64,000 nt of DNA from positions 8,053 through 72,052 of the forward strand of contig JACQXK010000021.1 of the NCBI GenBank assembly GCA_016208765.1, given 5' to 3'. The notes beneath the pieces were generated by a model that saw only the letters and a program-made list of their open reading frames with translations, did no database searches and was not told the DNA's origin. The stretch is from Candidatus Omnitrophota bacterium (GTDB lineage: Bacteria > Omnitrophota > Gorgyraeia > Gygaellales > Profunditerraquicolaceae). The position numbers were made by a program, and so were the translations under genes. Positions 17,370 to 40,637 of the stretch are shown here, one piece after another; the first letter of the stretch is position 1, and each line of letters begins with the position of its first letter.

Positions 17370-17393
17370 TGTTTATTAAAATGTTTATTAAAA
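17370..17393. repeat. Perfect tandem direct repeat, 2 x 12 bp (tgtttattaaaa), in an AT-rich intergenic region.
   Basis: Read directly from the sequence. It lies 70-93 bp upstream of the start of GT2 gene 16338..17300 on the minus strand. Confidence 0.8.
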
Positions 17394-17414
17394 TCACGAT
17401 GTTCAGATAAACTA

Positions 17415-18962: not shown

Positions 18963-20836
18963 GGCTTAATCCGTGGTGGAAATGTAAAGGCAAGTTTTAA
19001 GTTTTCTGATAAATCATGATTATTAAATATCTTGCGTTCAAGGATCTCGATAGTATTTATATTTCTTACTATCCACTCAGAGGCCCTGCCATCATCAACA
19101 GCTTTTCTGTACATGCCTCTGCCGATAAGGTCAGACGATTTATATAGATTTAGTATGTCTTTTGCATAAGGATATACGGGATTATGCCCTGACATTGTCT
19201 CGCTATTTATCAGCAAGCGAGCAAGAACTGCATCTGTTAAACCCCAGCCATGTATAATCCTCTTGGAAAAATGTTCATAATCAGTCTCACACCATATGCC
19301 AATTTCTATGTCATCATATTTAAATTCCGTCTTTTTATTAACTTTTTTAATCTGGTCTCTCATGTCGGTTATATACCCCAAATGGATATGCTGCCCGGCC
19401 TGCATAAGAGATGCTGCTTCCGTTATTTTGACTTTATCAAAAAGCAGTTCTCTTTTAACTTTCTCCTCGGGTATCGAGTTATTATAAGTTGAGCTGAGAA
19501 AAATCGGATGTCTCTTTAGCTGGACAGGGTAAAATGAAAAAAACAAAAGTATAATGACCATCGTTATTGAAGGCACTGCTGATCTGTATTTCGATATATT
19601 AAACTGCTGCATAAAGTTGCCCAGAATGCCTGAGAAAGAACACGTTATAAGGATAAAGGGAAAGGCAAGATAGCGGTAATGGGTCCAGTCCCCGCCGATC
19701 TTAATTACATAAAGCAAAACAGGCAACGCCGTAATGACCATCATCACTCTCTTTGAAAGCTCCAATTCAATGCTTTTCTTTTTTAGAAAATAAATAAAAA
19801 ATAAAAATAGAACTGCTACTTCATAAAAATGATAAGTCCCGAATGTGTCATGAACATAAATAAGCCCCTGCTTTATATTGATCTTATTTTTGTAGTAAAA
19901 CGTGTTAGGAAATATATCGGCATAATAATAAATTCTGAATAAAACCCATGAACCTAAAGAAGTTATCATCAGCAAGACCATCTTTAATGGAAATTTCTTG
20001 TCATGCAGCCAGGTCCACACAGAGCAAAAAACAAAAGGGATGATCAGCTCATGCCTCACTAACGGTGACATAGCCAGCATGACTTGCAGGGTTCTTGATC
20101 CTGGGTTGAGTATGTATAATGCATATGCAACTGCAAGAACCTGAACGATCGACGTCTCCATCCAGGATGAAAAATGACAAAGCACAGCATAATTAAATGT
20201 AAGATACACCAAGGGGAAATTGATGCCGATTACAGGGGGAGAAAGCCTCCTGTCAAGTTTCACCAGCATTAACCAGAATAAAATAAAACTCAGTGTAGTT
20301 ATTAAACGGAAAATATTAGCCCAGTTAGCGCCTGTAGTCCTTAAAAAAGAAGCAAGAATTACCATAAATGGACTGCTCAGCCCATCAACATATTCGCCTT
20401 TATTGTAGACAAGACCATTTCGTAGAAATAACATGTTATCAATGTATCTTAATAAAATATAGGCGTCATCCATCACCCAAAAATACCATTGAATCAGAAA
20501 TAAACCCGCCACCAGGCAACACCACTCTATTGAGTGAATTTTGAGATATTCTCCTTTTTTGTATCTTGAAATGGAAACAAGAAGAAAAATAAAAAAGAAC
20601 ATGGTAACAAACAGGTTTTTTATCACTCCATAAAGCAACCAGTGCGCCTCCTTGTGATAATCTATTACCTGGTTTTCCATCGTTTGGAAAATGCCAAGAT
20701 CATACAGCGTCTTAATAAACTGGCTGCCGTAAAACTTATAAACTGCAAATGTCACAGGAATGCTTACTAATAACACCGCAATAAACAAAAGAGGAAGCTT
20801 GTTATCCCAAATCCATTTATTATTTTTCAATCCCAT
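18959..20836 (-). CDS. Putative GT-C fold membrane glycosyltransferase of the DDxY family, paralog of 1393..3045.
   Basis: 625 aa. The motif DDAYILLRYIDNMLFLRNGLVYNKGEYVDGLSSPF is present. The protein is polytopic with a C-terminal soluble domain. Confidence 0.55.
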   Translation of the reverse strand: MGLKNNKWIWDNKLPLLFIAVLLVSIPVTFAVYKFYGSQFIKTLYDLGIFQTMENQVIDYHKEAHWLLYGVIKNLFVTMFFFIFLLVSISRYKKGEYLKIHSIEWCCLVAGLFLIQWYFWVMDDAYILLRYIDNMLFLRNGLVYNKGEYVDGLSSPFMVILASFLRTTGANWANIFRLITTLSFILFWLMLVKLDRRLSPPVIGINFPLVYLTFNYAVLCHFSSWMETSIVQVLAVAYALYILNPGSRTLQVMLAMSPLVRHELIIPFVFCSVWTWLHDKKFPLKMVLLMITSLGSWVLFRIYYYADIFPNTFYYKNKINIKQGLIYVHDTFGTYHFYEVAVLFLFFIYFLKKKSIELELSKRVMMVITALPVLLYVIKIGGDWTHYRYLAFPFILITCSFSGILGNFMQQFNISKYRSAVPSITMVIILLFFSFYPVQLKRHPIFLSSTYNNSIPEEKVKRELLFDKVKITEAASLMQAGQHIHLGYITDMRDQIKKVNKKTEFKYDDIEIGIWCETDYEHFSKRIIHGWGLTDAVLARLLINSETMSGHNPVYPYAKDILNLYKSSDLIGRGMYRKAVDDGRASEWIVRNINTIEILERKIFNNHDLSENLKLAFTFPPRIKP

Positions 20837-20887
20837 TTTTGTCGCCTACGATCCTCATTCATCGTTTATATTGATGTCAAAAATAAA

Positions 20888-22156
20888 TTAATAACCCTGA
20901 TGACAATAATTGAAGCTCTCGTTCGTCTTATTACTGTAATAGGATAAGAAAGTTTCGGCTATCAGTCTGTTACCATTTTCATTCCAATGCATGTCTCTTT
21001 CAAGAAAATATTCGTCAAGTGTCTTCAATGGGCGATCTTTATTCAACTTCAGAAAGCAAGGAAAATAATTTATAAACCCGATATTCTCTTCTGCCGCGAA
21101 TTTCTTCCAAAATAAAACTTGCCTGGAGTCAAAATCGTTATGAAATATTTGGGCAGGCCATGGATAAACAGCGATTGTCATTTTTATATTGTGTTTCCTT
21201 GCAAGCTCAGCCAGTTTTTCCATGTATAATCTTGATTTCTCTAAGCCCCTCCTGCCAAATTCTTCATACAGTTTGTCATCCAAGCTCCACATACCCCTCT
21301 TTCCTGCAATCATATATTTTGGCATATTTTCATAATCATACACAGGATGCTCTTCCTTTTGCAGTAGAACATCATGAAGCTTATTTAGAAAAAAATAGCT
21401 TATTATGGTGTTATTTTTTAAAAAATACTTCATCCCGTGCTGAGGATCAGCTTGTTGCAAGCCACGTTGCTTGAGATCCGCTTCGTTCTGTCCCAAACAC
21501 ACCTTTTCATTTAGGTAAATGACTGTTTCATCCTCTCCGGAAGTATAACAGTATGCTTCGTCATATATGTCCGACATATCTATAAACACAATGAGTTCGT
21601 TAAACTTAAGCCCTAACTCTTCTATCAAGTGTTTTGTTTTTCTCCAATAGATCATTGGAGAATATGTAGCAACACCGGCATTCAAAACTTCAATATTCTC
21701 CAATAATAATTTGTCAGAAACGATACCCACAAAAGAGTCTTCAAAATTCATACCCACTCCTTCAGTGAAAGAATCTCCAATAAATAGTATTCTATATTTA
21801 TCCGACACAAGCGATGTCTCCTTCACTGAGTTGCTCTTAAAGCCAAGAGAATCTGTAAATAGATTGTACTGCCTATTGTCCCACATCGTTGTCTTCAAAG
21901 AGACAGAAGCCCGGATCTTCAAATCATGATGGTATATCTCGGATGGAATCCTGTATGACTTTTCGGTTGCGGTCAAGTCCTCTATCCAGCGGCGTCTCTT
22001 CTCTTCATACAAAAATTTAGAAAATGGTTCTCCTTTAATGTAGTTAAATGTGATAGCACAAATTACGTCAAGTAGAATAATAATAATTACAAATATTATA
22101 AACGTAAATATCTTCCCGCGTCTTTCAAAGATATTTTTTTGCGTTCCGCTGCTCAT
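20888..22156 (-). CDS. SGNH/GDSL hydrolase-fold protein with an N-terminal TM anchor. Putative glycan O-acetyl esterase or transferase.
   Basis: GDSL block I is FIGDSFTEGVG. Block V is DMHWNENGNRLIAE. The N-terminus has a hydrophobic helix. Confidence 0.7.
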   Translation of the reverse strand: MSSGTQKNIFERRGKIFTFIIFVIIIILLDVICAITFNYIKGEPFSKFLYEEKRRRWIEDLTATEKSYRIPSEIYHHDLKIRASVSLKTTMWDNRQYNLFTDSLGFKSNSVKETSLVSDKYRILFIGDSFTEGVGMNFEDSFVGIVSDKLLLENIEVLNAGVATYSPMIYWRKTKHLIEELGLKFNELIVFIDMSDIYDEAYCYTSGEDETVIYLNEKVCLGQNEADLKQRGLQQADPQHGMKYFLKNNTIISYFFLNKLHDVLLQKEEHPVYDYENMPKYMIAGKRGMWSLDDKLYEEFGRRGLEKSRLYMEKLAELARKHNIKMTIAVYPWPAQIFHNDFDSRQVLFWKKFAAEENIGFINYFPCFLKLNKDRPLKTLDEYFLERDMHWNENGNRLIAETFLSYYSNKTNESFNYCHQGY

Positions 22157-22232
22157 TGTCTTCTTAAGCGTAACATAACTATAATTCTCTCATGATTATG
22201 GTTACGATCAATTCCTCTCATATAGGCTCTGT

Positions 22233-24029
22233 CTAATCCATCCTTAACGACTTCGTGATAACATTAAGTTTAATTTGATTATCATCTTTTATCATTACAA
22301 AATCTAATGCCTCCCTGCTGACAAAAGCAGGTGGCCCGGTATTAATATTGACTTTTTTAACATAGTTGGTTTTAGAGTTCAAGTTTAACCATGACTTAAT
22401 GCTATCAGCGTTAGGCATAACAAAGTTTTTGGGGTAATTTTCTATGTTAATGGTAACGTTATTTGATAATTCCGGCAGGACTTTCAAGATTTTCATCAGA
22501 AACAACTCCCTCTTTCTCATAGAGTCCTTTAACTGTAAGTTAAAATCGATTATGACATAAGAGCACATTAGAACACTCAGTATAAATATTCCCATACCAA
22601 ACAAACGCTTGACAGGCTTCAGATAGGGGGTCTCAAACCATTCAATAAATATGACGGAAAGAATAATACTAAGCGGAACTAATGGATTGTATAGATAGCA
22701 ATACACAAAATTGGAAATAGCTACATATATACAAAGAGGCAGCAATATCCATATAAGTAAAAAAACTTTTAATTTATTCTTGTATAAAACCGGGAAAATA
22801 GATTTACCGCTACTGCCATAGTTGGCAATCACTACCAGAAAAAGGGTAAAGAAAAAAAGCAACGAATAAAATACATTCAGCAAGAAGAGCCTGGTTATCT
22901 CTAAAAAATTGATTAATGGATGCTCCCGTCCCTGCATTAGCCACTTAAAGAACTGCAAAAGTGGTTTCGGCCCTTTACCGTAATATGCATTTTCCGATAT
23001 TTGTTCTATCAACGGGTAGGCAAAAATAGCACATGAACTTAATATAACGACTGCAATTAAAAATATTATTATTAATTTTATACCACGACCGCATAACAAT
23101 ATTTTCTTGTACAACAAAGAAGAAATCAAAAGAGGAATTAGAGGGATAAAATAAACTATTTGTTTGTTATAGAAATAAAATGATTTAAACAAACTGATAG
23201 GATCTATCAAGTAATCGAAATATTTTAGAACAATGATATCATCCGGATTAAGTTTGTACCCATAATATCCACGCGCTGCATGACCCAGAAGGTATTGACG
23301 CCATGAAAAAATTAATATAGTCAATAGAACATAAGGAGCAACTATCTTTAAAGCGCGCACTATTCTGACACCGGCAGATTCCTCATCTGAAAAAATAATT
23401 AAATATACTAAAACCAAAAATGGCAGAATAATAGCCACCTCTTTTGAACCGGACGCCAGAACATAAAAAAATAACGAGGCAATTAGCAGGCCTTTACGAT
23501 AAGTCCTTGATGGAAGATATTTAAGGAAGGATAAAAAAGAAAGCGCTAAGAACAATGTACTTAAAGTATCCTCTCTGGTATCAATCAGAAGCACAGTATA
23601 TCTGTTAGTAGGATGAACAGCAAAAACAATAGCACTGATCCACGCAATTGACCGCCGCCCACCTGTCAGCTTCATCGCGATAAAAAAAACAAGGATGGAA
23701 GTCAATATATGAATAAGCATGTCTGTTAAATGGTAACCAAATGGATTTAGTCCCCATATATAATATTCTAAACTGAAGAATATTCCAGCTACCGGGCGCA
23801 AAAATACACCCTGGAATGAAGTATCTGCTAAAAGTGGTTTGGTGAAAATATTGAAGACATCCTTTAACGACTTAATTTGGTAAAGTTCAATCAATGAAAA
23901 GATATCGGAAGATGTAAAAAAAGAGCTGAGAATGTGCCGAAAGGTAATATAAATAAGCAGGATTACAGATAAAACCATGAAGGCAGTGGTATAAGGTTTA
24001 TTGGAACTTATCTCTTTTTTATCGTTCAT
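22233..24029 (-). CDS. GT-C membrane glycosyltransferase, PMT_2/TMTC-like, paralog 3.
   Basis: 598 aa. The motif WGLNPFGYHLTDMLIHILTSILVFF is present. Confidence 0.7.
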   Translation of the reverse strand: MNDKKEISSNKPYTTAFMVLSVILLIYITFRHILSSFFTSSDIFSLIELYQIKSLKDVFNIFTKPLLADTSFQGVFLRPVAGIFFSLEYYIWGLNPFGYHLTDMLIHILTSILVFFIAMKLTGGRRSIAWISAIVFAVHPTNRYTVLLIDTREDTLSTLFLALSFLSFLKYLPSRTYRKGLLIASLFFYVLASGSKEVAIILPFLVLVYLIIFSDEESAGVRIVRALKIVAPYVLLTILIFSWRQYLLGHAARGYYGYKLNPDDIIVLKYFDYLIDPISLFKSFYFYNKQIVYFIPLIPLLISSLLYKKILLCGRGIKLIIIFLIAVVILSSCAIFAYPLIEQISENAYYGKGPKPLLQFFKWLMQGREHPLINFLEITRLFLLNVFYSLLFFFTLFLVVIANYGSSGKSIFPVLYKNKLKVFLLIWILLPLCIYVAISNFVYCYLYNPLVPLSIILSVIFIEWFETPYLKPVKRLFGMGIFILSVLMCSYVIIDFNLQLKDSMRKRELFLMKILKVLPELSNNVTINIENYPKNFVMPNADSIKSWLNLNSKTNYVKKVNINTGPPAFVSREALDFVMIKDDNQIKLNVITKSLRMD

Positions 24030-24063
24030 ATTAAAATCAGGCCTCTTAACTTAAAGACAGTAA

Positions 24064-25560
24064 TTATCTGGGCGTATAAATAATCTCCGGTCTTGTTCTC
24101 ATACCGGTAACTGAGAAGAAGATATTATCTTTGTCGAAAATGCGCTCATTTTCTATGTAATATTCCTTCATGCCACGAGGGTACCAGGGTTCTGAATCAA
24201 TAATGATAGCGCTGAATTTTCGCTCTTTCATAGCTTGCTTGATTTCTTCAATAAGCTTAGACTTAATATGCGCATGTTTTTCACTACTTGTCGTTAAGAC
24301 ATCCCTCATCCCCATCTGGTGGGCATACCCTTTTTTACCGTTGAAAGAATTCAGATAACCGTGAAATGGAATATAGATCTCACCATCTATTTTAGCCAGT
24401 TTGCCTACGAGATCCCACCCGGCTTCAAGGTCTTCTTTTGATGGAATTTGATTCATGGGATTATAAATCAGAGAACCAAACTGCAATATGCAAACAAAAT
24501 ATAAAATACATTTCATCAAATCCTGTTTTCTCGCAGGCAGTGATTGACTGATCATCGATAGTTTATTTACTCCCAAACCAAACAGGATTGACGTAAAGGC
24601 ATAAGCAGGAAGCAACACATTATAATATCCCCCGCCCCTGTAACGGGAAAACCACGATGCACCAAACATTCCAACCGCGGTCAGAAGGTAAAAGGAAAAC
24701 ATCTGTTTCTTTGATACGTTTGTCAGCGATACTATATAGAATATCGCTATGAAAATCGCAATATAGAACGGCAACACTATATCTTTTATCCAGAAATGCA
24801 TTATTGGTCTTGTATCAAGAGGGGTTGTTTTCGGCAATTCAAACACATAAAAGTTGAACCAGCCATCGGACATATAATTGAATAATACGCTCCCGATGCC
24901 GATAATAGAAGCCAACGGGATTATAAAAAATAAAGCAGAACGCCTGTCTGATAAAATAAAATAAAGCATAATCGGCAAAGAAATCACCAATGCAGTCTGC
25001 TTTGTAAAAAAAGAGATGGAAAAAAATATTGCCGCAACGACGCGCGAAGCCGGGGAAGTTCTGCATTTCAACAGGTAAATCCCAACAAGCAAGCTAAAGA
25101 GAAAAAAAGAATCAACACGTCCGATATCAAACCATGAACCGCTTAATTGGAATGTAGCAGCGAATAAACAAGATGCCAGCATCGCTGATAAATTGTCCTT
25201 TGTTTCATGATTTACCATAAGGTAAATCATAATGAATGAACCTATCGAGGACACAAAAGAAATTATTCTAAGCGGAAGAAATCCGACACCGAGGATCTTG
25301 GACATAACGGCCGAGATATAAAAGAATAATGGCGTATAAATAGACGGTACAAATTCCAATGAAGGTGCTACATAATAGTTATGATTTGAAAGGACCCATC
25401 TTACATGTTCCAAAGATGCGCCTTCCTCCCATTCCAGTTCAAACGGATATTGTATACGAAAAAACACCATAATAAGGTAAGCAGCAATATATAATATCCC
25501 CCCTGCTAATAGAGTATATTTTAAAAATTTTGCTAACCGGTCCAAGGAATTACTTTCCAT
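24064..25560 (-). CDS. Polytopic membrane protein of the YPFELEW family, paralog 2.
   Basis: 498 aa. It carries the region IQYPFELEWEEGASLE...APSLEFVPSIYTPLFFYISAV. Confidence 0.6.
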   Translation of the reverse strand: MESNSLDRLAKFLKYTLLAGGILYIAAYLIMVFFRIQYPFELEWEEGASLEHVRWVLSNHNYYVAPSLEFVPSIYTPLFFYISAVMSKILGVGFLPLRIISFVSSIGSFIMIYLMVNHETKDNLSAMLASCLFAATFQLSGSWFDIGRVDSFFLFSLLVGIYLLKCRTSPASRVVAAIFFSISFFTKQTALVISLPIMLYFILSDRRSALFFIIPLASIIGIGSVLFNYMSDGWFNFYVFELPKTTPLDTRPIMHFWIKDIVLPFYIAIFIAIFYIVSLTNVSKKQMFSFYLLTAVGMFGASWFSRYRGGGYYNVLLPAYAFTSILFGLGVNKLSMISQSLPARKQDLMKCILYFVCILQFGSLIYNPMNQIPSKEDLEAGWDLVGKLAKIDGEIYIPFHGYLNSFNGKKGYAHQMGMRDVLTTSSEKHAHIKSKLIEEIKQAMKERKFSAIIIDSEPWYPRGMKEYYIENERIFDKDNIFFSVTGMRTRPEIIYTPR

Positions 25561-25601
25561 ATCTGTATGAAATCCTTATTTGTGTTAACGGGATATTTTG
25601 A

Positions 25602-27578
25602 TCAGTATGCATTAGATCGCTTAATGCTTTTATTTGCACGGGAGAGTTCATTTTCAATTAACGCAGCGAGACGCTGCGCTATTTGAGGTTCCTCCTTCGA
25701 TATATCTCTTGTTTCATTAGTATCAGACTTGAGGTCAAAAAGAAGTGATTTATTCTTCTCCAGATAATTAACAAGCTTATAGCCTCCGTCCCAGACAGCT
25801 ATTGTGCCTTTATCGATAAAATAATTTCCAAGGATGCGGTTCTTCATCAATTGCATGGAAAATACCGGCCTCGGCTCATGCGTCTTGCCCTCAAGTACCG
25901 GAACCAATGAACGCCCTTCCATCCATTCTGGGACAGGGATATCTGCGAGCTCAAGAATAGTTGGAGCTATGTCTATTTGCTCTACAGGCATTTCTGCAGT
26001 CAGGGTCTTGGTTGTCCGTGGTGTCTTTATCACCAGAGGAACACGGACCAGAGATTCGTAAAGCTCAAACTCGCCATGGCTCACATATCCATTTGAAAAG
26101 CTCTCACCATGATCTGAAGTGAAAATAATAACCGTGTTGGACATGTCGGTTTTTTCACTGAGCCGTTCCATAAATATTTTAAATTCATTGTCTGCATCGA
26201 GAATAAACTCATCATACCGTTTTCTTAGAATATTCACCTTTCTCTGGGTGTCCGGTTTGTAATATGTCCCAATCAAGCTGCTGTTGATCTGTTTTTCGGG
26301 TGTATTCAATTCTTCTGCATCTCCGAATGCGCCCATATAAGTGGCACGGGGGTTATAAGGGAAATGAGGCGGATAAACATGTATGTATGCAAAGAACGGC
26401 TGTTCAGTCTTGCCGGCAATGACATCAAGAAAGCGGTTATACACCGTCTCAGGCCGTATTGAAGTTATATAGTAAGGGAAGCGAAAGAGCTTTATATTAA
26501 AAGGAGAAACAAGCGGGTTATCTATGAAAATCCATTTTGCTACAATAGGTCTTTTGAGATAAAATTCCACGCTCTTGTCAATCAGCCACGTCGGTGATAT
26601 CCAAAATGTGTCTACCTCATCTCTTATAATAAATGCATCTTTCATTCCCAAAGTCTTCGGATGCGCATAGTTATTTTGCGCAAAACCATATACAGCATAA
26701 CCATGCTCTCTTAAGATATCAGGCAAATTGTTTTTATAAAAACTGACGGGATGATTCTCCGCCAGATACCATACCCTGTGTGTCCATGGTCTTTGGCCCG
26801 TCAGGATGCTCATGGTTGAAGGAGTGGTCCAGTTAGATGTTGAATACGCGCGGTTAAAAACAATGGCGTCCTTTGCCCATTCAGCTATAAATGGTGTTGT
26901 AGGACGGTGGTAGCCGTATAACTGCATATCAAGTGCGGTCAAGGCATCCATTACAACAACTATAATATTAGGGCGCTTATTATTGCCGATAAATACTCCC
27001 TGAGCAGTTTTAGTTGATGGTTGAGAATGATATCCTGCCTTTGAATCAGAGGTGCTTTTTTTAATCATGGAAAAAGGGACGGCAAGAATTAACAGAACGG
27101 TAAAGATCCAGAACAGCGGGGCAATCCTTATGTCTATTCCAACAAGGGCTTTTTCAAAATTTATATACTTACTTGCCAACCAGAAGAGCACAAGAACAAG
27201 TAACCCGGATGAGATTAAAAACAAATAATAATTTATACCGATAGAATCGCTTATCGAAATATCCAGGAAAGTCTTTTTTAGGATGAACGCTATTATACCC
27301 AGTAAAAAATAAATCAGAACTTGCTCAAAACAATTTATCTTCAAATATCTTAGAGACACTTTTGACAAACCATAGGTGACTATCCAAAAAAGAAATGCAG
27401 CTATAACTCCAAGCAATGTCCATAAAATGAATGATAAAGACAAATCAGGCAGGAAATCTTTAAAGCCCATATAATAGGAATATCCGTCCCACTTGTAAAA
27501 AGCATCCCTTATAAACATCAGGGAAAATAAAATAAAAAATATCCTCAATGTTACAACTAAAGATTTTTTAGCTGACAT
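25602..27578 (-). CDS. Membrane-anchored sulfatase/alkaline-phosphatase superfamily protein (LtaS/EptA/OpgB-like), paralog 1.
   Basis: The N-terminus has about 5 TM helices. The C-terminal domain carries NIIVVVMDALTALD (metal-site motif) and TSDHGESFSNG (sulfatase DHGE motif). 658 aa. Confidence 0.8.
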   Translation of the reverse strand: MSAKKSLVVTLRIFFILFSLMFIRDAFYKWDGYSYYMGFKDFLPDLSLSFILWTLLGVIAAFLFWIVTYGLSKVSLRYLKINCFEQVLIYFLLGIIAFILKKTFLDISISDSIGINYYLFLISSGLLVLVLFWLASKYINFEKALVGIDIRIAPLFWIFTVLLILAVPFSMIKKSTSDSKAGYHSQPSTKTAQGVFIGNNKRPNIIVVVMDALTALDMQLYGYHRPTTPFIAEWAKDAIVFNRAYSTSNWTTPSTMSILTGQRPWTHRVWYLAENHPVSFYKNNLPDILREHGYAVYGFAQNNYAHPKTLGMKDAFIIRDEVDTFWISPTWLIDKSVEFYLKRPIVAKWIFIDNPLVSPFNIKLFRFPYYITSIRPETVYNRFLDVIAGKTEQPFFAYIHVYPPHFPYNPRATYMGAFGDAEELNTPEKQINSSLIGTYYKPDTQRKVNILRKRYDEFILDADNEFKIFMERLSEKTDMSNTVIIFTSDHGESFSNGYVSHGEFELYESLVRVPLVIKTPRTTKTLTAEMPVEQIDIAPTILELADIPVPEWMEGRSLVPVLEGKTHEPRPVFSMQLMKNRILGNYFIDKGTIAVWDGGYKLVNYLEKNKSLLFDLKSDTNETRDISKEEPQIAQRLAALIENELSRANKSIKRSNAY

Positions 27579-27593
27579 AATTAGAATCTCGAA

Positions 27594-28811
27594 TCAATCA
27601 ACATAAAGAAGTTTTTTAACTCTATGGAAAACGTCCTGCGGCATAATACCTTTCAGACAAGCCCCTTCCTCACAAGGAGTTATTCTATGATTAAAAACAT
27701 TAACGCAAGGAGAGCAAACCAAATTCGGAACAATAACAGTGGTATTTTGGCTTAGCGGCCCATAAAGTAAAGGAGTTTCAGGGCCAAAAAGGATTACTGA
27801 TTTAATTGATGTTAAGGTTGAAAAATGGGCTGGGCCGCTGTCATTTGTTATTAAAAGATCCCCTATACAATACAGAACAAGCAATTCCCTCAGAGATGTA
27901 TGCCCTGCTAAAGAAACGGCATTCCTTATGTGAGAAGCTATTATATCGGCTTTCTCTTTTTCTTTGTGGGCTCCCGTTATTATTATGGAGGAACCGGGGA
28001 ATTCCTCTGCCAGCATCCTGCCGAGTTCAATAAAGTTTTCTTCCTTCCATCTTCTAATGGGCAGCATATCGCTTGCGTTAGGATTTAAGATGATTATCGG
28101 TTTGCTTAATTTCGCTTTTATTAATTTTTCGATTTTTTCTATCAATAATTGCTTTTCTTCTCTGGATGGAGAAAAGGTAGGATGGGCGCTCATTTCTTCA
28201 GGCACATTGAAAATCATAGGACTGTTTCCATGCGGAACATGATTTAATGCCTCCACTAAACTCAAAAAAAATCGCGACGTATGTATGTAAGGGTTATATA
28301 ATAATTTGTGAGTTAGAAGGTCGCCTCTATATGGGCCTTCACAAGTAAATAAATGAAGGCCCACCCTTTTATATGCACCAGACAGGTAAGAAAAAATAGC
28401 TGATGCTCTCGAAAAGAATTCCATATCTATTACAGCGTCTATCTTTTCCTTCCTTATTCTGAAAATAGTTTTTATTGATGAAAAAGAGAATTTCTTTAAA
28501 TCATCGAAGTCAATCTCAAAGACATTGGATGAAGGGATAATATTCAGCACATCCAATATAAAGCGATTCTCCTTAAAAACAGCAAAGTAAACATTTTCTT
28601 TTCCCACCATTTCTACTGCCCTTTTCAGAGCTGAATAAGCCAACACAGTAGATCCCTGCTCCACTAATTTTATAAATAATATTTTAGATATTTTGTTGTT
28701 GTGAATATTATTTTTTTTGAATAAATCAAAAAATCTTTTATGCAAAGTTAGAATAAGGCATATCGGGCGTCCAAAATTTCTATCAATCCAGCAAACGACT
28801 GATGGCTTCAC
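27594..28811 (-). CDS. GT9 family glycosyltransferase (ADP-heptose:LPS heptosyltransferase-like).
   Basis: PIRRWKEENF...LAGHTSLRELLVLYCIGDLLITNDSGPAHFSTLTSIKSVILFGPETP matches the GT9 C-terminal signature. Confidence 0.85.
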   Translation of the reverse strand: MKPSVVCWIDRNFGRPICLILTLHKRFFDLFKKNNIHNNKISKILFIKLVEQGSTVLAYSALKRAVEMVGKENVYFAVFKENRFILDVLNIIPSSNVFEIDFDDLKKFSFSSIKTIFRIRKEKIDAVIDMEFFSRASAIFSYLSGAYKRVGLHLFTCEGPYRGDLLTHKLLYNPYIHTSRFFLSLVEALNHVPHGNSPMIFNVPEEMSAHPTFSPSREEKQLLIEKIEKLIKAKLSKPIIILNPNASDMLPIRRWKEENFIELGRMLAEEFPGSSIIITGAHKEKEKADIIASHIRNAVSLAGHTSLRELLVLYCIGDLLITNDSGPAHFSTLTSIKSVILFGPETPLLYGPLSQNTTVIVPNLVCSPCVNVFNHRITPCEEGACLKGIMPQDVFHRVKKLLYVD

Positions 28812-30445
28812 CTCTTCACCTCCTCTTTTTCACCCAAATCATATAGATAAACTGAAGAATCTGCACTCTTCAAGAAATCAAGTTTTGATCCGATGCTGTT
28901 TAAATAATATACAAAAAATGATTCGTCCTTAATTCCTGCACGGGGAGGCGGGATGTGAGCAAAAAGTATCCAGAGCCTCTTACTACCGCGTAGCTTGTCA
29001 AGGTCGCTGGTAAACTCATTAAGGTTATCTACTGTGAACTCAAAGAAATCATTTTTATCGCCTGCAAAAGCCCCAACAATATAGTCTTTATCTGTAAAAC
29101 CATATCTATCTGCATAATATTTAAATGCCGGCTTTGAGCCGTAGTGAAGATACAAAATATCACCTTCCTGCCAGTTCTTTCTAACATAGCTCAAAAGAGG
29201 TTTAATTTCCTCCCTGACTATCGGTTTGTTAAGTAAATGATTGGCAGCGGAAATCAATGGATAAGATAATAGTAAACAAATGAATACGGTACCCATTACA
29301 GGTAATTTTCGTGAGGTGCTGTCCCTTATCTCTTCGGTTCCTTCCGCAATAATAAGTATGAATGCTGGTGCAAGAAACAATAAGGTCCTTTCCAGAAAGG
29401 GATACAAATGAAGCCCAGATGCCAATAAGGTAACAACAGCAGGAGCTATAAGAATAAAAAAAATTTCTCTTCTCTCTCTAAAAATTGAGATACAACCCAT
29501 TATAAAAGCAAATGCCGCTATACCGCCGACAGCCATCATTGAAGTATTCTGCGAGATCGTTAATGTTGGTTTTGCAAAGATTGAAAAGAATGTGTCAATA
29601 AACCATGCGATATCAGAAGGTGAAAGTGGCGGGAAAGGCATAAAAGCGCCCTCGTCTTTCCATTGCTCTACTATTGGTGACTTGTTTATGTTACCGATAT
29701 AAATTAGATAATAAGAGATAAAAGCTACTATCCAAAGTAAATAGGCAATTGAAAGATTACGAACTCTCATCCATTCCTTTCTAATTAAAGAGAACAAGAA
29801 AAGGCTTGCACCAATACCTGCTAAGGCAAACGGAGAGGAATGCGAAAACCACACCACTATGCCCCCTATTCCAAAAACAATATAATGAAGCAGCGCCGGT
29901 TTTTTGGACTGAGTATAAGTTGTTAATATTAACAGCAGCAATACAATTGTTATATCACTTGAATAAGAATGAACTTCCGACGAGTAATAAATTAATGAAT
30001 CCGAAACTGCAAACAATGCGAGGGCGATTGGAACGGCTTTGGGCTTGATATAATGCCTGGCAACAAAGCAGAAAAGAAATAAGGAGATTATCCCGCATAT
30101 GAGAGGAAAAAGTCTTAATGCATATTCAGTATTTCCAAATACTGAAACCATTAACTTTTCAACTACAAAAAAACCCAGAGGCGAAGAAGACTTCCAATGT
30201 CCCAAATAATCCGGATCTGTGACAGTAGGATTAAAAATATCTGAAAAGCTACCAAGAATACTCCCTGTAATATTTGCTTCGTCTATCCACAGAGAACGAT
30301 TATACAGATACTGGGCGACTCTAAGGATTATTCCAAAACAAATAATAGTCCATGTAAGCTTATTTGAGCTGAAATAACTATTCTCTTTGTATTTAAATGA
30401 TTTTTCTGATAATTCTCTATTCATATCATATAAAAAATAAAACAA
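28808..30445 (-). CDS. ArnT/PMT-superfamily GT-C membrane glycosyltransferase (GT39/GT83-like).
   Basis: 545 aa. The first loop is LWIDEANITG, matching the D/E motif of the ArnT family. It has about 12 TM helices and a roughly 150-aa soluble C-terminus. It overlaps the GT9 gene by 4 nt. Confidence 0.6.
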   Translation of the reverse strand: MFYFLYDMNRELSEKSFKYKENSYFSSNKLTWTIICFGIILRVAQYLYNRSLWIDEANITGSILGSFSDIFNPTVTDPDYLGHWKSSSPLGFFVVEKLMVSVFGNTEYALRLFPLICGIISLFLFCFVARHYIKPKAVPIALALFAVSDSLIYYSSEVHSYSSDITIVLLLLILTTYTQSKKPALLHYIVFGIGGIVVWFSHSSPFALAGIGASLFLFSLIRKEWMRVRNLSIAYLLWIVAFISYYLIYIGNINKSPIVEQWKDEGAFMPFPPLSPSDIAWFIDTFFSIFAKPTLTISQNTSMMAVGGIAAFAFIMGCISIFRERREIFFILIAPAVVTLLASGLHLYPFLERTLLFLAPAFILIIAEGTEEIRDSTSRKLPVMGTVFICLLLSYPLISAANHLLNKPIVREEIKPLLSYVRKNWQEGDILYLHYGSKPAFKYYADRYGFTDKDYIVGAFAGDKNDFFEFTVDNLNEFTSDLDKLRGSKRLWILFAHIPPPRAGIKDESFFVYYLNSIGSKLDFLKSADSSVYLYDLGEKEEVKR

Positions 30446-30467
30446 GAATGGTTACGATAAATAAATT

Positions 30468-32429
30468 TTAACTCGACGTTGATTTTAGACTTCTAATATT
30501 TGCGCGGGCAAGCTCATCTTCGACCAATTTTAAAAGACGCTGTCTAACTTCGGGATTTTCATTTGAGATATCATTTCTCTCATTAGGGTCGCTTCTCAGG
30601 TTAAAAAGAAGTGCTACTTTATTCTCAAGATAATATATAAGCTTGTAGTCGCCGTCCCAAACGGCTATTGTCCCTTTAGTAATCGGATAGTCGCCGATAG
30701 TACGATTCTTAATCAGTTCCATAGAGAAAATAGGCTTTGGCTCAAGCGTTTTGCCTTCAAGTAAAGGAAATAATGAGCGCCCCTCCATCCATCCCGGTAC
30801 AGGTATACCGGCAAATTCAAGGATGGTTGGAGCTATGTCTGTTTGTTCCACGGGCATATCCGTTGCATGCGTCGTTGCTTTCCATGGCGTCTTTATTATC
30901 AAAGGGACATGAACAAGTGACTCGTAGAGCTCATAATACCCATGCCCTGCAAAGCCGTGCGAAAAACTTTCACCGTGATCCGACGATAAAATAACGATCG
31001 TGTTAGACATATCTACAGTTTTCGAAAGGCGAATAAAAAATTCCTTGAACTGCTGGTCAGAATATAGCACAAACTCATCGTAGCGTCTTCTGAGGTCATC
31101 CACGTCGTTTTGCCTCTGAGGCTGGTAATTGTCATCAATTAATTTACTTTTCAATTGCTTTTCATCTGTATTAAATTTTTCTGAATTTCCAAACGTACCC
31201 AGATAAGGTTTTGGCGGCAAATACAGGGCATGTGGCGGATAAACATGAATATATGCGAAGAATGGCTTTTCGGGTCTGCGGGAAATAGTTTCAAAAAAAC
31301 GATCATAAACAATTTCGGGACGAATTGATGAAGTCAGGATCGGATGGCGAAAAAATCTCGGATTGAATAAGCTGAGCAAAGGATTATTTTCAAAGATCCA
31401 TTCTGCGACTATGTGCCTGCTCGTAAAGAAACCCGCATACTTTTCATACCACAGATTCCGGGTTATCCAGAAAGTATGCGCCCTGTCTTTTGTAGTAAAA
31501 GCGTCTTTAATTCCTAAAGTATCGGGATGTGCATTATGATTTTGCACAAAGCCATAGACAGCATAGCCGTAATCCTTCAGTATCATAGGTAAATTATTCT
31601 GATAATTATTGACCGGGTTGGACTCTGCCCGATACCATACTTTATGTGTCCATGGCATTTGACCGGTCAATAAACTCATCGTTGCGGGGGTAGTCCAATT
31701 GGATGCTGAGTATGTCCGGTTAAAAACAGTGGCGTCCCAGGCCCATTCGGTTATGAATGGTGTTGTTGGACGGTTGTACCCGTATAACTGCATATCCTCC
31801 GCTGTCAATGCATCCATGATTACCAATATTATGTTAGGACGATTTATATAATTAGTGCTATTGACCGATGCAGAATCATCATGAGAAGATTCAACCTGGG
31901 CAGAGCTTTCTCTGATTACTGATAAGGGCACAGCAATAATTAACAATAATACAAATACCCAGAGTAAAGGCGTAATACGGACATTCACTTCCATCAGTAA
32001 CTTTTCATAATTAATGTATTTATGCATCAACCTGATAAAAATCAATGCTAATGCAAGGCCGATTATTAAAGTAAAAAAATGATCCAAACCAACCGCTTCG
32101 CTTAAGGAAATGTTCAGAAAAGTTTTTTTTATGAACAATATAATTACGATAAAAGTGAACCACGTAATTATATGTTCATAACGAATGTCCTGAAAAGGCT
32201 TGGGAAGCCACTTAGACAGTCCATTTCCGCTTAACCAGAAGGTAACCGCAAGGATAATACCGAAGACAGTCCATAATAAATAGGCCAGTGAAAGTTCGGG
32301 CAAAAAATCAATAAAGCGCATATGATAGGAATAGCCATCCCATTTATAAAAAGCATCTCTGACGAATCGGAGAGAGAAAAGAATGAAAAAAAACCTCAGG
32401 GTTATAAGGAGAGTCTTTTTAGCTGTCAA
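30468..32429 (-). CDS. Membrane-anchored sulfatase superfamily protein (LtaS/EptA-like), paralog 2.
   Basis: 653 aa. The N-terminus is near-identical to paralog 1 (MTAKKTLLITLRFFFILFSLRFVRDAFYKWDGYSY). It carries NIILVIMDALTAED and SSDHGESFSHG. Confidence 0.8.
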   Translation of the reverse strand: MTAKKTLLITLRFFFILFSLRFVRDAFYKWDGYSYHMRFIDFLPELSLAYLLWTVFGIILAVTFWLSGNGLSKWLPKPFQDIRYEHIITWFTFIVIILFIKKTFLNISLSEAVGLDHFFTLIIGLALALIFIRLMHKYINYEKLLMEVNVRITPLLWVFVLLLIIAVPLSVIRESSAQVESSHDDSASVNSTNYINRPNIILVIMDALTAEDMQLYGYNRPTTPFITEWAWDATVFNRTYSASNWTTPATMSLLTGQMPWTHKVWYRAESNPVNNYQNNLPMILKDYGYAVYGFVQNHNAHPDTLGIKDAFTTKDRAHTFWITRNLWYEKYAGFFTSRHIVAEWIFENNPLLSLFNPRFFRHPILTSSIRPEIVYDRFFETISRRPEKPFFAYIHVYPPHALYLPPKPYLGTFGNSEKFNTDEKQLKSKLIDDNYQPQRQNDVDDLRRRYDEFVLYSDQQFKEFFIRLSKTVDMSNTIVILSSDHGESFSHGFAGHGYYELYESLVHVPLIIKTPWKATTHATDMPVEQTDIAPTILEFAGIPVPGWMEGRSLFPLLEGKTLEPKPIFSMELIKNRTIGDYPITKGTIAVWDGDYKLIYYLENKVALLFNLRSDPNERNDISNENPEVRQRLLKLVEDELARANIRSLKSTSS

Positions 32430-32650
32430 TCTTTTTTCTTTGTGAATTTATTCTTAATAAAATTAACTATCCGCTTCCAGAAAATGACTACAACGCCAAG
32501 CATTCCATATACAAAAGGGAGCACCGTTGTGAAGAAAAAGCCTCCTGTATTTGGGTCAACATATGCCCAACCACTATAAGGAATAGTTAATAAAACTATT
32601 TCACAGCTTACAAACATCATAAGCAGTTGAAGTTGTTTTGATTTAAACAT
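32426..32650 (-). CDS. Small membrane protein (74 aa), hypothetical.
   Basis: The ribosome-binding site is strong: AAAGGAG sits 7 nt upstream of the ATG (the reverse complement of 32651..32670 is ctcaagaaaggagtaagaat). The protein has an N-terminal hydrophobic segment, YVDPNTGG, a second TM segment and a lysine-rich tail. Its last codons overlap the downstream sulfatase gene by 4 nt. Confidence 0.55.
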   Translation of the reverse strand: MFKSKQLQLLMMFVSCEIVLLTIPYSGWAYVDPNTGGFFFTTVLPFVYGMLGVVVIFWKRIVNFIKNKFTKKKD

Positions 32651-37124: not shown

Positions 37125-38777
37125 TCATTTCTGTGCTTTAAGAGAATAGATTCTAAGGCCTGACACTTTTCCGCTTAATATATCTTTATATGATATTCCC
37201 CCTGTAATTTCCCTGCACTTGGACATATACTGAGGCATTGCTGCGGCAGAATCGTTCCAGACAAGATAATAGTCAATATCATGTTTGTTCAATTCATTCT
37301 GCAGATCCTCATCGCTGATATTTTTCTTGGCTTGTCCATAATAGTTCACATTCATATCAGAATAAAACAGTATCTTCAGTGTCTCTGAAAATCTATCGTT
37401 TGAAGCGATCTTCTTCCCTGCCATCTCGCTGTACACTCGTAATGTTTTGCCAAATATTCCAAAGGCCTTATCAGCGTTTTGGGTTGCAACAACCTCCTTT
37501 ATAGGCATTAAGACAAATGATAATGCCATGAACGTCATCAATAGATTTCTTCTCGCCCCGATAAAGAATGCATTCTGAAATAATATGTTGAGTATATGTC
37601 CTCCCATTAAAAGAACCAGGATACCGTTCACCCACAGATATCTCACATTGGGAAAGACCAGAAGGTACCCTCCGCAATACAAAAGTACTGTCAGTAGCGG
37701 GTAAAGTCTGTGATCTTTGAACATCTGTAACCTGACGGGCAGAAGATAGAGCAGTATATACCCTGCAATGATAACGCCTGAAAATATCGAGAAATACGTT
37801 TCAAAGATGCCTAAAGTATAATAGACGTTTTTTGCCATAATACCTAACTGATATTTAAGATTTCCCCATGAGTCAAAGGGGCTCCATGGTTTCAGGTATG
37901 GCGTTAATAACGTAAAATCCTCCCAGATGCTTATCGCGGTATCATTAGGTGGGGGGAAAAAACCCTTGTCATAAACCGGATGCCCCATTCGTATATAATT
38001 CCTCCAACCTTCCCATCCATAATATTCATTTATCTTTGGCACCTCCGGTCCCCTGATCCGGTTGTTATAAGCTCCTGATACATCAAATGTAATTGTGTTG
38101 TATTTGCTGCTCAATGCAATCATCCACGGTGCACTAATAATGCAAAACAAAACAAATCCCAGTGCCGCATTCCGTACCACCCTTTTGTCCTTCGTTCTGT
38201 AGTAGTGAAGAATATTCAGCATTATGAAGTGCGAGATAAAGAAAGGGAACATAAAAGACTTGCCAAAATATCCGATTGCGCCTATAACACCGCACAAAAC
38301 TCCCTGGTATGCCCTTCCCGGATAATCGGCCCTGAATATAACAGCTAAATAATATATGACAGCGCATGTTATTAACAGATCTGGTATATGCTCTGTCAAT
38401 GTGAACTGCAATACAACCGGAACAGATGTAAACGAAACCACATTCCTGATATTATCGGTCATTTCAAACCTGTATGATAACAACCTCACCCCTATCAGGG
38501 TAAGCAGTCCTACAAGCAGTTTAACTATACTCAGGGAAGCTATAGCCCCGATGCCCAGCTTCAGGAACGGGATCAACAGCCAGGAGGAAAGGGGCGTAAA
38601 GCCGCCGACAACAGCATTGTGAAGATCACCCCTGATATATTTCTGGGCGATTGTGATGAAAGCGATCGTACCTGTATTTACACCGTAAACATGTATTTCA
38701 TTGTGAATTGTAAAATAGATATTCAAAACCATGTATGCGATTAAAGATAAAATGAAGTATATCTTATTTCTTTTCAT
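37125..38777 (-). CDS. Polytopic membrane protein (550 aa). Putative GT-C-like protein, function unknown.
   Basis: It has many TM helices and a C-terminal hydrophilic domain of about 130 aa. Confidence 0.45.
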   Translation of the reverse strand: MKRNKIYFILSLIAYMVLNIYFTIHNEIHVYGVNTGTIAFITIAQKYIRGDLHNAVVGGFTPLSSWLLIPFLKLGIGAIASLSIVKLLVGLLTLIGVRLLSYRFEMTDNIRNVVSFTSVPVVLQFTLTEHIPDLLITCAVIYYLAVIFRADYPGRAYQGVLCGVIGAIGYFGKSFMFPFFISHFIMLNILHYYRTKDKRVVRNAALGFVLFCIISAPWMIALSSKYNTITFDVSGAYNNRIRGPEVPKINEYYGWEGWRNYIRMGHPVYDKGFFPPPNDTAISIWEDFTLLTPYLKPWSPFDSWGNLKYQLGIMAKNVYYTLGIFETYFSIFSGVIIAGYILLYLLPVRLQMFKDHRLYPLLTVLLYCGGYLLVFPNVRYLWVNGILVLLMGGHILNILFQNAFFIGARRNLLMTFMALSFVLMPIKEVVATQNADKAFGIFGKTLRVYSEMAGKKIASNDRFSETLKILFYSDMNVNYYGQAKKNISDEDLQNELNKHDIDYYLVWNDSAAAMPQYMSKCREITGGISYKDILSGKVSGLRIYSLKAQK

Positions 38778-39555
38778 ACCTATCTCTGCCTTCCTGTTTC
38801 AGTAATGAAAAGTATTCAATATGTCTCCCCCGATAACCATCGCCGTTACCGGTCATTGTTTCCAGTCCGGGATGCACGACTATTTCAACATCTTTATCGT
38901 AGAATTTTTCTAAAATTTTTTGTAGTAACCCGGTATAATTCCCCTTACCTGCCAATGGCATTAGAATAAGGTTCTTGCAATAATTAATGTGAGCATTGTC
39001 AAGTTTCAATTTCATGACTTTTCCCATCGCATAAAGCAAAATCATTTTCGGCACTTGGGCAAAAAAGCCGAAACGCATGAGAGAGTAAAAATAGAATATC
39101 AAATATTTACCTTCCATTGTAATACAGCGTATAGAGAAAACGTCCTTTTTTTTTGCAAAAGTCACAATTGCCTTCAATATTTTGGGCACTACATGAACGT
39201 GCTGATGAGTATCAAGATGTGAAACTTTAAAACCCTTGCTTGTCAGGATGTTATATTGCCGATCGATACTATCTAATATACTACCGCTATTCATCCTCCC
39301 GGTGTAGATGAGATAAAGGAGTTTCAGTAAAGATGCCTTCTTGCTGCTTTGATTCATCCCGCCACATCCAGTCTCATGAACAAGATTTATGTGTAAGCCA
39401 GTTTCAACACGATTACTGATATCACTTGAATATCTAATTGATTCATTTGCCATCACGCTTACCTTAGACAAAATGTTTTTTTTAGATAGTTCGGATATGG
39501 CCTGATTAACTTCCGGACACATTCCATAATCATCTGCCACGATTTTACATCCCAT
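38764..39555 (-). CDS. YdjC/ChbG/HpnK-like carbohydrate deacetylase.
   Basis: The N-terminus is ADDYGMCPEVNQAI, followed by GLHINLVHETG and HLDTHQHVHV, which together are the YdjC family signature. Confidence 0.6.
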   Translation of the reverse strand: MGCKIVADDYGMCPEVNQAISELSKKNILSKVSVMANESIRYSSDISNRVETGLHINLVHETGCGGMNQSSKKASLLKLLYLIYTGRMNSGSILDSIDRQYNILTSKGFKVSHLDTHQHVHVVPKILKAIVTFAKKKDVFSIRCITMEGKYLIFYFYSLMRFGFFAQVPKMILLYAMGKVMKLKLDNAHINYCKNLILMPLAGKGNYTGLLQKILEKFYDKDVEIVVHPGLETMTGNGDGYRGRHIEYFSLLKQEGRDRYEKK

Positions 39556-39560
39556 AATAT

Positions 39561-40637
39561 TTATGGTACAAGACCAGCCTTTGTTAACTCAGAAAACAGT
39601 GTATCAGCAACTACTTGGTAACCCGCACTGTTACAATGCCCGTCTATTTTCCAGTAAAGTTTGGCTTTCTTGGAAGCCGCCTGCATCGCAGGTGTAATAT
39701 CAATAAATGGCGCCTCTTTGCTGCGGGCCCAAGCCGATAATCTTTGAGGAGGATAAGTGGAAGGCGGCGTCGCCCATGACGCATCCTGTGGAATATTAAA
39801 AAAAACTATCTTAGAGTTATTCCGGTGAGACAACTCTATCATCTTGTCGTACTCTTGTTCGATCTTTCCCCACTCCTTCTCTAAGAAACCGTTGTCTCTG
39901 TATTTTTCAGTATCGGCAACTTTTTTCAAGAAATCTTCTTTATCCCTATACCGTTGAACAACAATACGAAACAAGTGAGAATGAGAATAAAGCCAACTGC
40001 TAACCTCATTTATTTGCCCCAATTTATTCCCGGATAATAAATATCCGTCTTTTGCTACTCCTACTCCGTCAATTCCATAAAATGTATCAATTACATCATT
40101 ACGCACGAATCCGACTATAATCAGATCGGGTTTAAAGTTGAGTCCATAATGTTCAAGTAAAAGGCGCTCAGTTTCCGGATAAAAGCGGGGAATGCCCGCT
40201 TTTATAATCTCCACTTTGGGATGTTGACCACTTCTTTTATTCAACATTTGTTCTAATTTTAATAGATACGTATCTTCAAAAAAGACCCCTGCGCCGTATG
40301 TAAAACTGTCCCCCAAGCCTAAGATGCGAAAGACACCATCAGGCTTATTCACAGAATGTTCTATATCTCTGAAACCAAGGCTGTTATGCTGAAAATCAAT
40401 AGCAAATTCTCTGGAGGCGGACAGTCCTGTGAACCTGCTGAGAGGACGCGTTTTAAAACGCATGTACGGGTCCTCTACAAACCTGACCACCGGCAGAAGA
40501 GGAGCAAGATGAAGTAAACGCACAAAGCATTCAAGGGCTGCAAAGATAAAGATAACTGAAAACAGCATATAAAGAAAGAAAAACCTTATCTTACCGTGTG
40601 AGCTCTTCAACATTAAGGCTCCACTGTACAATTGCAT
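39561..40637 (-). CDS. SGNH/GDSL hydrolase-fold protein with an N-terminal TM anchor.
   Basis: Block I is ILGLGDSFTYGAGV. Block V is DGHCNSAGYQVVAD. Confidence 0.7.
   Translation of the reverse strand: MQLYSGALMLKSSHGKIRFFFLYMLFSVIFIFAALECFVRLLHLAPLLPVVRFVEDPYMRFKTRPLSRFTGLSASREFAIDFQHNSLGFRDIEHSVNKPDGVFRILGLGDSFTYGAGVFFEDTYLLKLEQMLNKRSGQHPKVEIIKAGIPRFYPETERLLLEHYGLNFKPDLIIVGFVRNDVIDTFYGIDGVGVAKDGYLLSGNKLGQINEVSSWLYSHSHLFRIVVQRYRDKEDFLKKVADTEKYRDNGFLEKEWGKIEQEYDKMIELSHRNNSKIVFFNIPQDASWATPPSTYPPQRLSAWARSKEAPFIDITPAMQAASKKAKLYWKIDGHCNSAGYQVVADTLFSELTKAGLVP

Follow-up and report, generated by a model that had tools for sequence, protein, structure and literature searches.

The sulfatase-like genes described here lie in a window of 64,000 nucleotides (nt), which is a portion of a 106,161-bp contig from a Candidatus Omnitrophica metagenome-assembled genome. 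Four co-directional open reading frames (ORFs) occupy positions 25602-32429 of the minus strand, and all four are real genes. An earlier note had proposed that two proteins with five transmembrane (TM) helices and a sulfatase domain flank a GT-C-type and a GT9 glycosyltransferase gene in this block, and the ORFs, Pfam matches and predicted helices agree with that arrangement. The two flanking proteins, paralogs A and B, are predicted from their sequences to be membrane-anchored enzymes of the alkaline phosphatase (AP) superfamily that use a threonine nucleophile on an S1-sulfatase scaffold and carry a TM domain of their own. The true start of the block lies upstream of 32429, where the ORF of a small membrane protein of 74 amino acids (aa) runs into the first codon of paralog B. 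The genes and domains are as follows, in the direction of transcription.

32426-32650, minus strand: small membrane protein, 74 aa, supported by its sequence and an aaggag ribosome-binding site; NCBI hypothetical protein HY761_04795
30468-32429, minus strand: paralog B, 653 aa, TTG start; Pfam Sulfatase (3.5e-47) and SGSH_C
31899-32429, minus strand: TM domain of paralog B, residues 1-177
31692-31694, minus strand: codon of the predicted nucleophile Thr246 of paralog B
30471-31856, minus strand: S1-sulfatase-fold domain of paralog B, residues 192-653
28808-30445, minus strand: polytopic 545-aa membrane protein, probable GT-C; sub-threshold PMT_2 and Agl23
27594-28811, minus strand: soluble GT9-family glycosyltransferase, 405 aa, heptosyltransferase-like; PF01075 (6.5e-22)
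25602-27578, minus strand: paralog A, 658 aa; Pfam Sulfatase (2.6e-50) and SGSH_C
27054-27578, minus strand: TM domain of paralog A, residues 1-175
26826-26828, minus strand: codon of the predicted nucleophile Thr251 of paralog A
25605-26990, minus strand: S1-sulfatase-fold domain of paralog A, residues 197-658
24064-25560, minus strand: downstream GT-C, 498 aa; PMT_2 (3.5e-8)

The junctions from paralog B to paralog A consist of a 22-nt gap, a 4-nt overlap between the GT-C stop codon and the GT9 ORF, and a 15-nt gap; the four genes therefore form one transcription unit. The 498-aa GT-C gene follows paralog A after 41 nt and is probably co-transcribed with it. A scan for promoters and terminators returned counts not above those in shuffled sequence and gave no evidence. 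Paralog A is 100% identical to the NCBI protein P0001, named 'sulfatase-like hydrolase/transferase'. The NCBI model of paralog B (P0009, 617 aa) begins at an internal ATG, which cuts off the conserved TM helix 1. We prefer the TTG at 32429 as the start because residues 1-36 then fit the family consensus and the family-wide N-terminus is restored.

Assignment of the catalytic domain relies on several comparisons that agree with one another. The S1 fold, including the C-terminal SGSH_C subdomain, is present in both paralogs, and an AF2 model of paralog A reaches a pLDDT of 90 and a pTM of 0.90. The top 60 matches of a phmmer search against the PDB are all sulfatases or phosphonate monoester hydrolases (best 7oz8, 8e-29). 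Among NCBIfam models, all scoring far under their family cut-offs, arylsulfatase (1e-45) and choline sulfatase (5e-34) precede the EptA-type domain (5e-12), YejM (3e-7) and LtaS (8e-3). A profile hidden Markov model (HMM) of the family was built in this analysis, and its comparison scores come from the catalytic domain only. It gives the Escherichia coli sulfatases YidJ, YdeN and AslA 106, 84 and 60 bits, respectively, and the proteins of phospho-transferase type much less (EptA 26, EptB 23, LapC 23, EptC 18, OpgE 6, OpgB 5 and BcsG -2 bits). By every sequence measure, the catalytic domain is nearest to the S1 formylglycine sulfatases. The earlier note had held that its phospho-transferase interpretation would fail if the proteins grouped with true arylsulfatases bearing the formylglycine motif C/S-x-P-x-R; A and B do group with true sulfatases, yet without that motif.

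The motifs MDALTA, NWTTP and SDHGESF occur in both paralogs, so the intact metal sites and DHGE motifs reported earlier are borne out, as is the absence of C/S-x-P-x-R from A and B. In the alignment to 7oz8, T251 of paralog A falls on the serine or cysteine that is converted to formylglycine and T255 falls on the arginine of the motif. Conservation was counted over 107 full-length family members. The nucleophile column holds threonine in 105 and serine in two, never cysteine, while the +4 arginine column holds T, V, M, S or A and never R, giving the family motif T-[TS]-P-x-[TVMSA]. The lysine of signature II (G-K-x-x-H) is replaced by a glutamine, Gln301, in 103 of the 107, and the position of the second sulfate-binding lysine aligns beside H501/G502. 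In contrast to these replacements, the metal ligands D211, D489 and H490 of paralog A are intact and, with T251, are kept in 105-107 of the 107; little or no variation is seen at D211, H267, H405, E457, D463, D489/H490, H501 and K601. Members of the superfamily that transfer phosphoryl groups, such as EptA, LtaS and NPP, have such a combination of metal site, threonine nucleophile and several histidines. Proteins of the PbgA/YejM/LapC type share the combination of five TM helices and an AP fold and act mainly as signal transducers, so A and B could be imagined as non-catalytic sensors or regulators of lipids or glycans. This is very unlikely, since the full catalytic set (metal ligands, threonine and three histidines) is invariant in the 107 sequences and the genes occur as 2-4 tandem paralogs inside biosynthetic clusters.

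The same replacements bear on whether the proteins are genuine sulfatases that act on a sulfated exopolysaccharide with threonine in place of formylglycine. The S1 fold and a sulfotransferase-like gene in the same cluster (56777-57661) speak for such a role. We know of no Thr-type sulfatase, and both the C/S-x-P-x-R motif and the sulfate-binding arginine and lysine are gone. No maturase gene, either of the FGE-sulfatase or of the anSME type (radical-SAM/SPASM), is present among all window ORFs of at least 150 aa. Threonine cannot yield formylglycine, and the SulfAtlas authors hold that Thr-type PF00884 proteins should not be named sulfatases (PMC5066984). A sulfatase function is thus improbable in the extreme. 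Because threonine occupies the formylglycine position and the arginine is lost, A and B are, as judged from these residues, not formylglycine sulfatases, and their site appears poorly suited to sulfate.

Threonine at this position is not confined to the family. The matches listed from a GTDB scan are dominated by ordinary sulfatases, and only three of the related loci (L004-L006; related loci are cited by such L numbers) are informative on the distribution of the family itself. Among these listed matches is a broader S1-like group from many phyla that reads T-L-P-S-H in place of C-x-P-S-R and scores 150-200 bits with the family HMM. Its carriers are:

L007, L010-L015, L018, L021, L026, L033, L047, L074 and L081: T-L-P-S-H proteins of 450-1200 aa, annotated as sulfatases

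A neighbour-joining tree places the T-L-P-S-H proteins next to the A/B family and apart from the Cys-type sulfatases. The A/B family is best described, from these alignments, as one tight subclade of an uncharacterised Thr-type S1-like group: we found no solved structure for the T-L-P-S-H clade and know of no characterised member, and our literature search found no account of the A/B family. Signal peptides of lipoprotein or secretory type head some T-L-P-S-H proteins, and unrelated polytopic N-termini head others, which suggests extracytoplasmic action.

The membrane domain is a second defining feature of the family. Five long helices, and as many hydrophobic segments, lie ahead of residue 175 in each paralog. 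Residues 1-175 have no sequence match in the PDB and no similarity to the membrane domains of E. coli EptA/B/C, OpgB/E, BcsG or LapC, and Pfam EptA_B_N, the EptA-type 5-TM domain, is not present in A or B. A search of 1.84 billion cluster representatives recovered the domain in 71 proteins; the full-length ones are all of 630-1014 aa, and the domain is therefore exclusive to the architecture of TM helices plus sulfatase fold. An invariant motif, W30, D31 and G32, lies in a loop that is predicted to be periplasmic. Charge counts over the family give modest support to an N-in/C-out orientation (K+R 7.3 versus 6.3, net +4.2 versus -0.2), and the catalytic domain most likely faces the periplasm. 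The earlier description of the proteins as LtaS/EptA-like thus holds for the design of five TM helices and a Thr-nucleophile AP domain, and fails for family membership and for kinship of the TM domain.

The established fold, residue pattern, family-wide conservation and gene context form the basis of a functional proposal, from which we infer topology, phosphoryl chemistry, transferase rather than hydrolase activity, donor and acceptor. The paralogs probably add or remove phosphate-linked groups on a surface glycan. Our preferred reading, tentative and held at a little short of an even chance, is that of a periplasm-facing phospho-group transferase that forms a phospho-threonine intermediate and acts on the glycan of the cluster. 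Each paralog would be an inner-membrane enzyme in which five family-specific TM helices support an AP-superfamily domain of S1-sulfatase fold. A metal-activated threonine (T251 in A, T246 in B) would attack a phosphodiester to give a covalent phospho-threonine, as in EptA, LtaS and NPP, and the phospho-linked group would be passed to water or to a hydroxyl of the glycan that the adjacent GT9 and GT-C enzymes make. A membrane lipid head group is the most likely candidate for the donor, as no dedicated donor pathway is encoded in the cluster, and two paralogs may serve two sites or two donors. The reading is supported by the presence of the family genes always in glycan loci rich in GT-C proteins and polyprenyl-phosphate-sugar synthases. 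The 'cationic' label given earlier to this modification is unsupported, with no evidence for or against it.

Several points weigh against a transferase. Donor, acceptor and activity are themselves deduced from sequence and context; the TM domain shows no detectable kinship with those that bind lipid in EptA, LtaS and PbgA; the topology relies on the modest charge bias given above; and only the Omnitrophica and WS5 loci pair the family with GT-C and GT9. In addition, among characterised proteins the catalytic domain stands nearest to hydrolases and not to transferases. It is possible, if doubtful, that A and B are membrane-anchored periplasmic phosphodiesterases or phosphatases that trim or release phosphate-linked groups or lipid-linked glycan intermediates. 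Such hydrolases would have no need of the conserved polytopic TM domain and the invariant W30/D31/G32 loop, features typical of enzymes that draw their substrate from the membrane.

The history of the two genes differs from what their N-termini had suggested. Paralogs A and B share 372 of 658 residues (57%; BLASTP E = 0), close to the earlier estimate of about 60%. Their first 60 residues had been called nearly identical and taken as a sign of recent duplication or gene conversion; the actual identity is 42 of 60 (70%), and third codon positions in these 60 codons match at 43-50%, no higher than in the rest of the genes. The N-terminal consensus ..F..DAFYKWDGYSYYM.F.DFLPDLSLAFILWT is kept family-wide. 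A contig of candidate division WS5 (L001), syntenic to window positions 16338-32429, holds both paralogs. Identity in the catalytic region is 69.5% between A and the WS5 protein P0002 and 67.4% between B and the other WS5 paralog, against 61.1% between A and B, and each pairs with its own WS5 counterpart in the neighbour-joining tree. It follows that A and B separated before the Omnitrophica and WS5 lineages diverged or a transfer took place, and by these sequence comparisons the duplication is old. Third positions near saturation, the family-wide motif and the reciprocal WS5 orthologs together rule out recent duplication or gene conversion; the N-terminal similarity is explained, on the same comparisons, by purifying selection.

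The 74-aa protein is a previously unnoticed part of the locus and belongs to a family without annotation, matching no Pfam or NCBIfam family. Its TGA stop overlaps the TTG start of paralog B in the sequence ATTGA. The protein is built of a variable signal-peptide-like segment, the motif A-Y-[IV]-D-P-N-T-G-G-F-F-F (A-Y-V-D-P-N-T-G-G in the window copy), one TM helix and a basic tail, and an alignment of 15 sequences has 22 invariant positions. At least 518 homologs of 67-86 aa are found, mostly in Nitrospirota. Members include:

L002, 12058-12294: 74-aa family member
L002, 14255-14491: 74-aa family member
L004, 469-708: 74-aa family member
L096, 8001-8231: 74-aa family member
L098, 8001-8237: 74-aa family member

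The gene immediately downstream of such an ORF is sulfatase-like in L002 (twice), L004, L093, L098/99 and L100/101, encodes a signal-less PF01663 enzyme in L096, and encodes a carbamoyltransferase, with SxtJ, in L102-L104; the two reading frames often overlap. A PF01663 enzyme of L094 (18638-20764) begins with an equivalent module, fused to it as an anchor and made up of AHA-YIGPGAG, a TM helix and a basic tail. An exclusive partnership with the sulfatase-like proteins is ruled out by the PF01663 enzymes and carbamoyltransferase/SxtJ pairs that the gene also precedes. The varied downstream neighbours and the fusion in L094 lead to our best guess, that the protein may tether tailoring enzymes to the membrane or act as their partner. 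A sorting signal of PEP-CTERM type was considered and rejected, as no PEP-CTERM model matches the protein even at E = 10.

The partner glycosyltransferases are assigned with differing strength. The 545-aa protein has about 9-11 hydrophobic segments and reaches PMT_2 and Agl23 below threshold (E 3e-4, 21.5 bits versus a cut-off of 26.1, and E 8e-8, 31.7 bits versus 126, respectively). It matches no ArnT model and no PDB sequence and has no paralog within the window, and its WS5 ortholog in L001 scores 891 bits. The protein is a probable GT-C glycosyltransferase, as previously suggested; its placement in the ArnT family, which depends on the sub-threshold PMT_2 match and the weak Agl23 match, is more tentative than stated earlier. 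The 405-aa protein is a GT9 member, as stated earlier (PF01075, 78.5 bits versus a cut-off of 22). The RfaF-type model gives it 76.9 bits where 134.6 are required, short of orthology to lipopolysaccharide heptosyltransferase I, II or III, and it matches PDB 1psw (RfaF) at 4e-9. It is taken to have no TM segment because its maximum 19-residue hydropathy is 1.27. The WS5 ortholog of the GT9 protein scores 704 bits, and that of the 498-aa GT-C scores 633 bits and holds the same relative position.

The window as a whole is one long minus-strand glycan cluster. It encodes a priming Bac_transf enzyme, GT4 enzymes, a Wzx-like flippase, amino- and deoxy-sugar enzymes, methyl-, carbamoyl- and acyl-transferases, several Dpm1/PpgS-like GT2 enzymes that resemble polyprenyl-phosphate-sugar synthases, and at least 10 GT-C-type polytopic proteins of five or six subfamilies. 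Further features of the cluster are listed below.

42547-44063, minus strand: exosortase EpsH (PF09721, 2e-58) and EpsI (DUF3485)
56777-57661, minus strand: sulfotransferase-like gene (Sulfotransfer_3, 1.7e-7)
37125-41404, minus strand: block of a GT-C (37125-38777), a YdjC-like deacetylase (38764-39555), an SGNH protein and a GT2 (40613-41404)
4617-6389, 8265-9737 and 22233-24029, minus strand: three paralogous polytopic proteins of 490-598 aa with no Pfam match, probably GT-C-like

The sulfotransferase-like gene indicates that the glycan may be sulfated and is the sole hint toward a sulfate-related role. The block at 37125-41404 presumably resembles the Francisella FlmF2/NaxD/FlmK or Bordetella LgmABC sets for amino-sugar modification of lipid A; it is probably the 'first' cationic module of the earlier note, and its GT2, YdjC and GT-C genes recur as a set in Nitrospirota (L003, L098). 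Homologs of the three paralogous polytopic proteins adjoin sulfatase-like genes in L093, L094 and L095, and a fourth family (1393-3045) recurs in L093 and L095.

The neighbours of the family vary across lineages. The gene order B, GT-C, GT9, A and GT-C is kept in the WS5 locus, with an acyltransferase between GT9 and the A counterpart, and with HddC-like (190 bits), HddA-like (138 bits), GDP-mannose-dehydratase-like (GMD-like) and RmlD-like genes between the B counterpart and GT-C (2177-6051). This set suggests, as a hint only, that the GT9 enzyme could use GDP-(deoxy)heptose as its donor; no such genes are present in the window. The GT9 and GT-C partnership is limited to these two loci, and the Nitrospirota paralogs, which form tandem arrays of 2-4, have other neighbours. 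These comprise DprE1-like (370 bits) and DprE2-like proteins, a decaprenyl-phosphate phosphoribosyltransferase (259.5 bits, above the cut-off of 234) and a HAD phosphatase, as well as GT2 and YdjC genes, an MBOAT protein with a carrier protein, and PF01663 enzymes. The DprE1/DprE2-like, phosphoribosyltransferase and HAD genes beside sulfatase-like paralogs lie at:

L093, 2176-9955
L095, 1450-4431
L002, 20438-21962
L003, 16084-18160

The Nitrospirota sets represent a polyprenyl-phosphate arabinofuranose-type donor pathway outside Actinobacteria, and they fit the donor logic described for polyprenyl-phosphate pentofuranose (Kelly et al. 2024, PMC11127046). The constant theme of the family loci is periplasmic glycan assembly from lipid-linked sugars.

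This setting raises a further alternative, in which A and B would take a sugar-1-phosphate or glycan-1-phosphate off a polyprenyl-(pyro)phosphate donor and hand it to an acceptor, a new ligase-like role instead of the transfer of phospholipid head groups. The pentofuranose donor genes beside the Nitrospirota paralogs, together with the several polyprenyl-phosphate-sugar synthase-like GT2 enzymes and at least 10 GT-C-type proteins of the window, are consistent with such chemistry. We know of no AP-superfamily enzyme that transfers sugar-1-phosphate from polyprenyl-linked donors; the proposal draws on gene neighbourhood alone, and DprE1, DprE2 and UbiA genes are absent from the window. We regard it as unlikely. 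A wider speculation, possible without being probable, is that the Thr-type 5-TM enzymes, derived from S1 sulfatases, arrived at the EptA/LtaS design independently, by convergence, and form with the 74-aa 'DPNTGG' protein a new class of membrane phosphotransferase. Its members would attach substituents through phosphodiester links, possibly sugar- or glycan-phosphates drawn from polyprenyl-linked donors, to arabinan-like or heptose-containing glycans that Omnitrophota, WS5 and Nitrospirota assemble in the periplasm.

The design of five TM helices and a Thr-nucleophile AP domain, known from EptA/MCR in colistin resistance and LtaS in teichoic acid synthesis, has a further version here, with a sulfatase-derived scaffold and a membrane domain unrelated to theirs. 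The labels 'arylsulfatase A-like' and 'sulfatase' that the family genes now bear are almost certainly wrong, and they make sulfatases seem more numerous than they are when Nitrospirota and Omnitrophota are surveyed by metagenomics. Together with its small-protein companion, the family points to a large and unexplored kind of envelope-glycan locus, one with many GT-C proteins, polyprenyl-phosphate-sugar donors and, in Nitrospirota, the DprE1/DprE2 pathway.

Comparison with known systems places the paralogs between established groups. EptA, MCR-1 and EptC share the threonine nucleophile and D/D-H metal site (T251, D211, D489 and H490 in paralog A), and transfer of phosphoethanolamine from phosphatidylethanolamine is a candidate function of A and B. 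Both are far under the curated cut-offs for the EptA/MCR family (NF028537 45 versus 500 bits, PRK09598 29 versus 561, CptA 17-28 versus 404). A second group of related design is formed by the lipoteichoic acid synthases LtaS and LtaP and the phosphoglycerol transferases OpgB and GacH. LtaS and OpgB have a nucleophile motif of the T-x-N-x-E type where A and B have N-W-T-T-P; the LtaS model reaches 14.8 bits against a cut-off of 970, in paralog B only, and E. coli OpgB obtains 5 bits with the family HMM. By these scores A and B, which resemble EptA and LtaS in architecture, belong to a different branch of the superfamily and are not members of either family. The tandem arrays of 2-4 resemble the paralog sets of EptA/B/C and LtaS, a point in favour of the transferase reading. 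A third group comprises phosphonate monoester hydrolases and the S1 sulfatases (choline sulfatase BetC; YidJ, YdeN and AslA of E. coli; BT1918). Sulfatases lack the 5-TM N-terminal domain; relative to S1 sulfatases, A and B have threonine at the formylglycine position, T/V/M for arginine and glutamine for the lysine of G-K-x-x-H, and the window has no maturase gene.

The overlap of the 74-aa gene with the start of paralog B recalls bcsF-bcsG of E. coli, in which the gene of a small single-pass peptide likewise overlaps, by 4 nt, the start of an AP-superfamily membrane enzyme. The cytosolic tail of BcsF brings in BcsE, a cytosolic protein, and makes no contact with BcsG (PMC11470070). BcsF and the 74-aa protein are unrelated in sequence, and the 74-aa family differs in also preceding PF01663 enzymes and carbamoyltransferases. 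Three-component periplasmic glycosylation, which consists of a GT2 or UbiA-type polyprenyl-phosphate-sugar synthase, a flippase and a GT-C enzyme, is also among the closest known systems: the window and the related loci likewise combine such synthases with many GT-C proteins, and the Nitrospirota loci add a pentofuranose branch of DprE1, DprE2, UbiA and HAD genes. The three-component systems are without an AP-superfamily enzyme, and the sulfatase-like proteins constitute an extra, undescribed layer.

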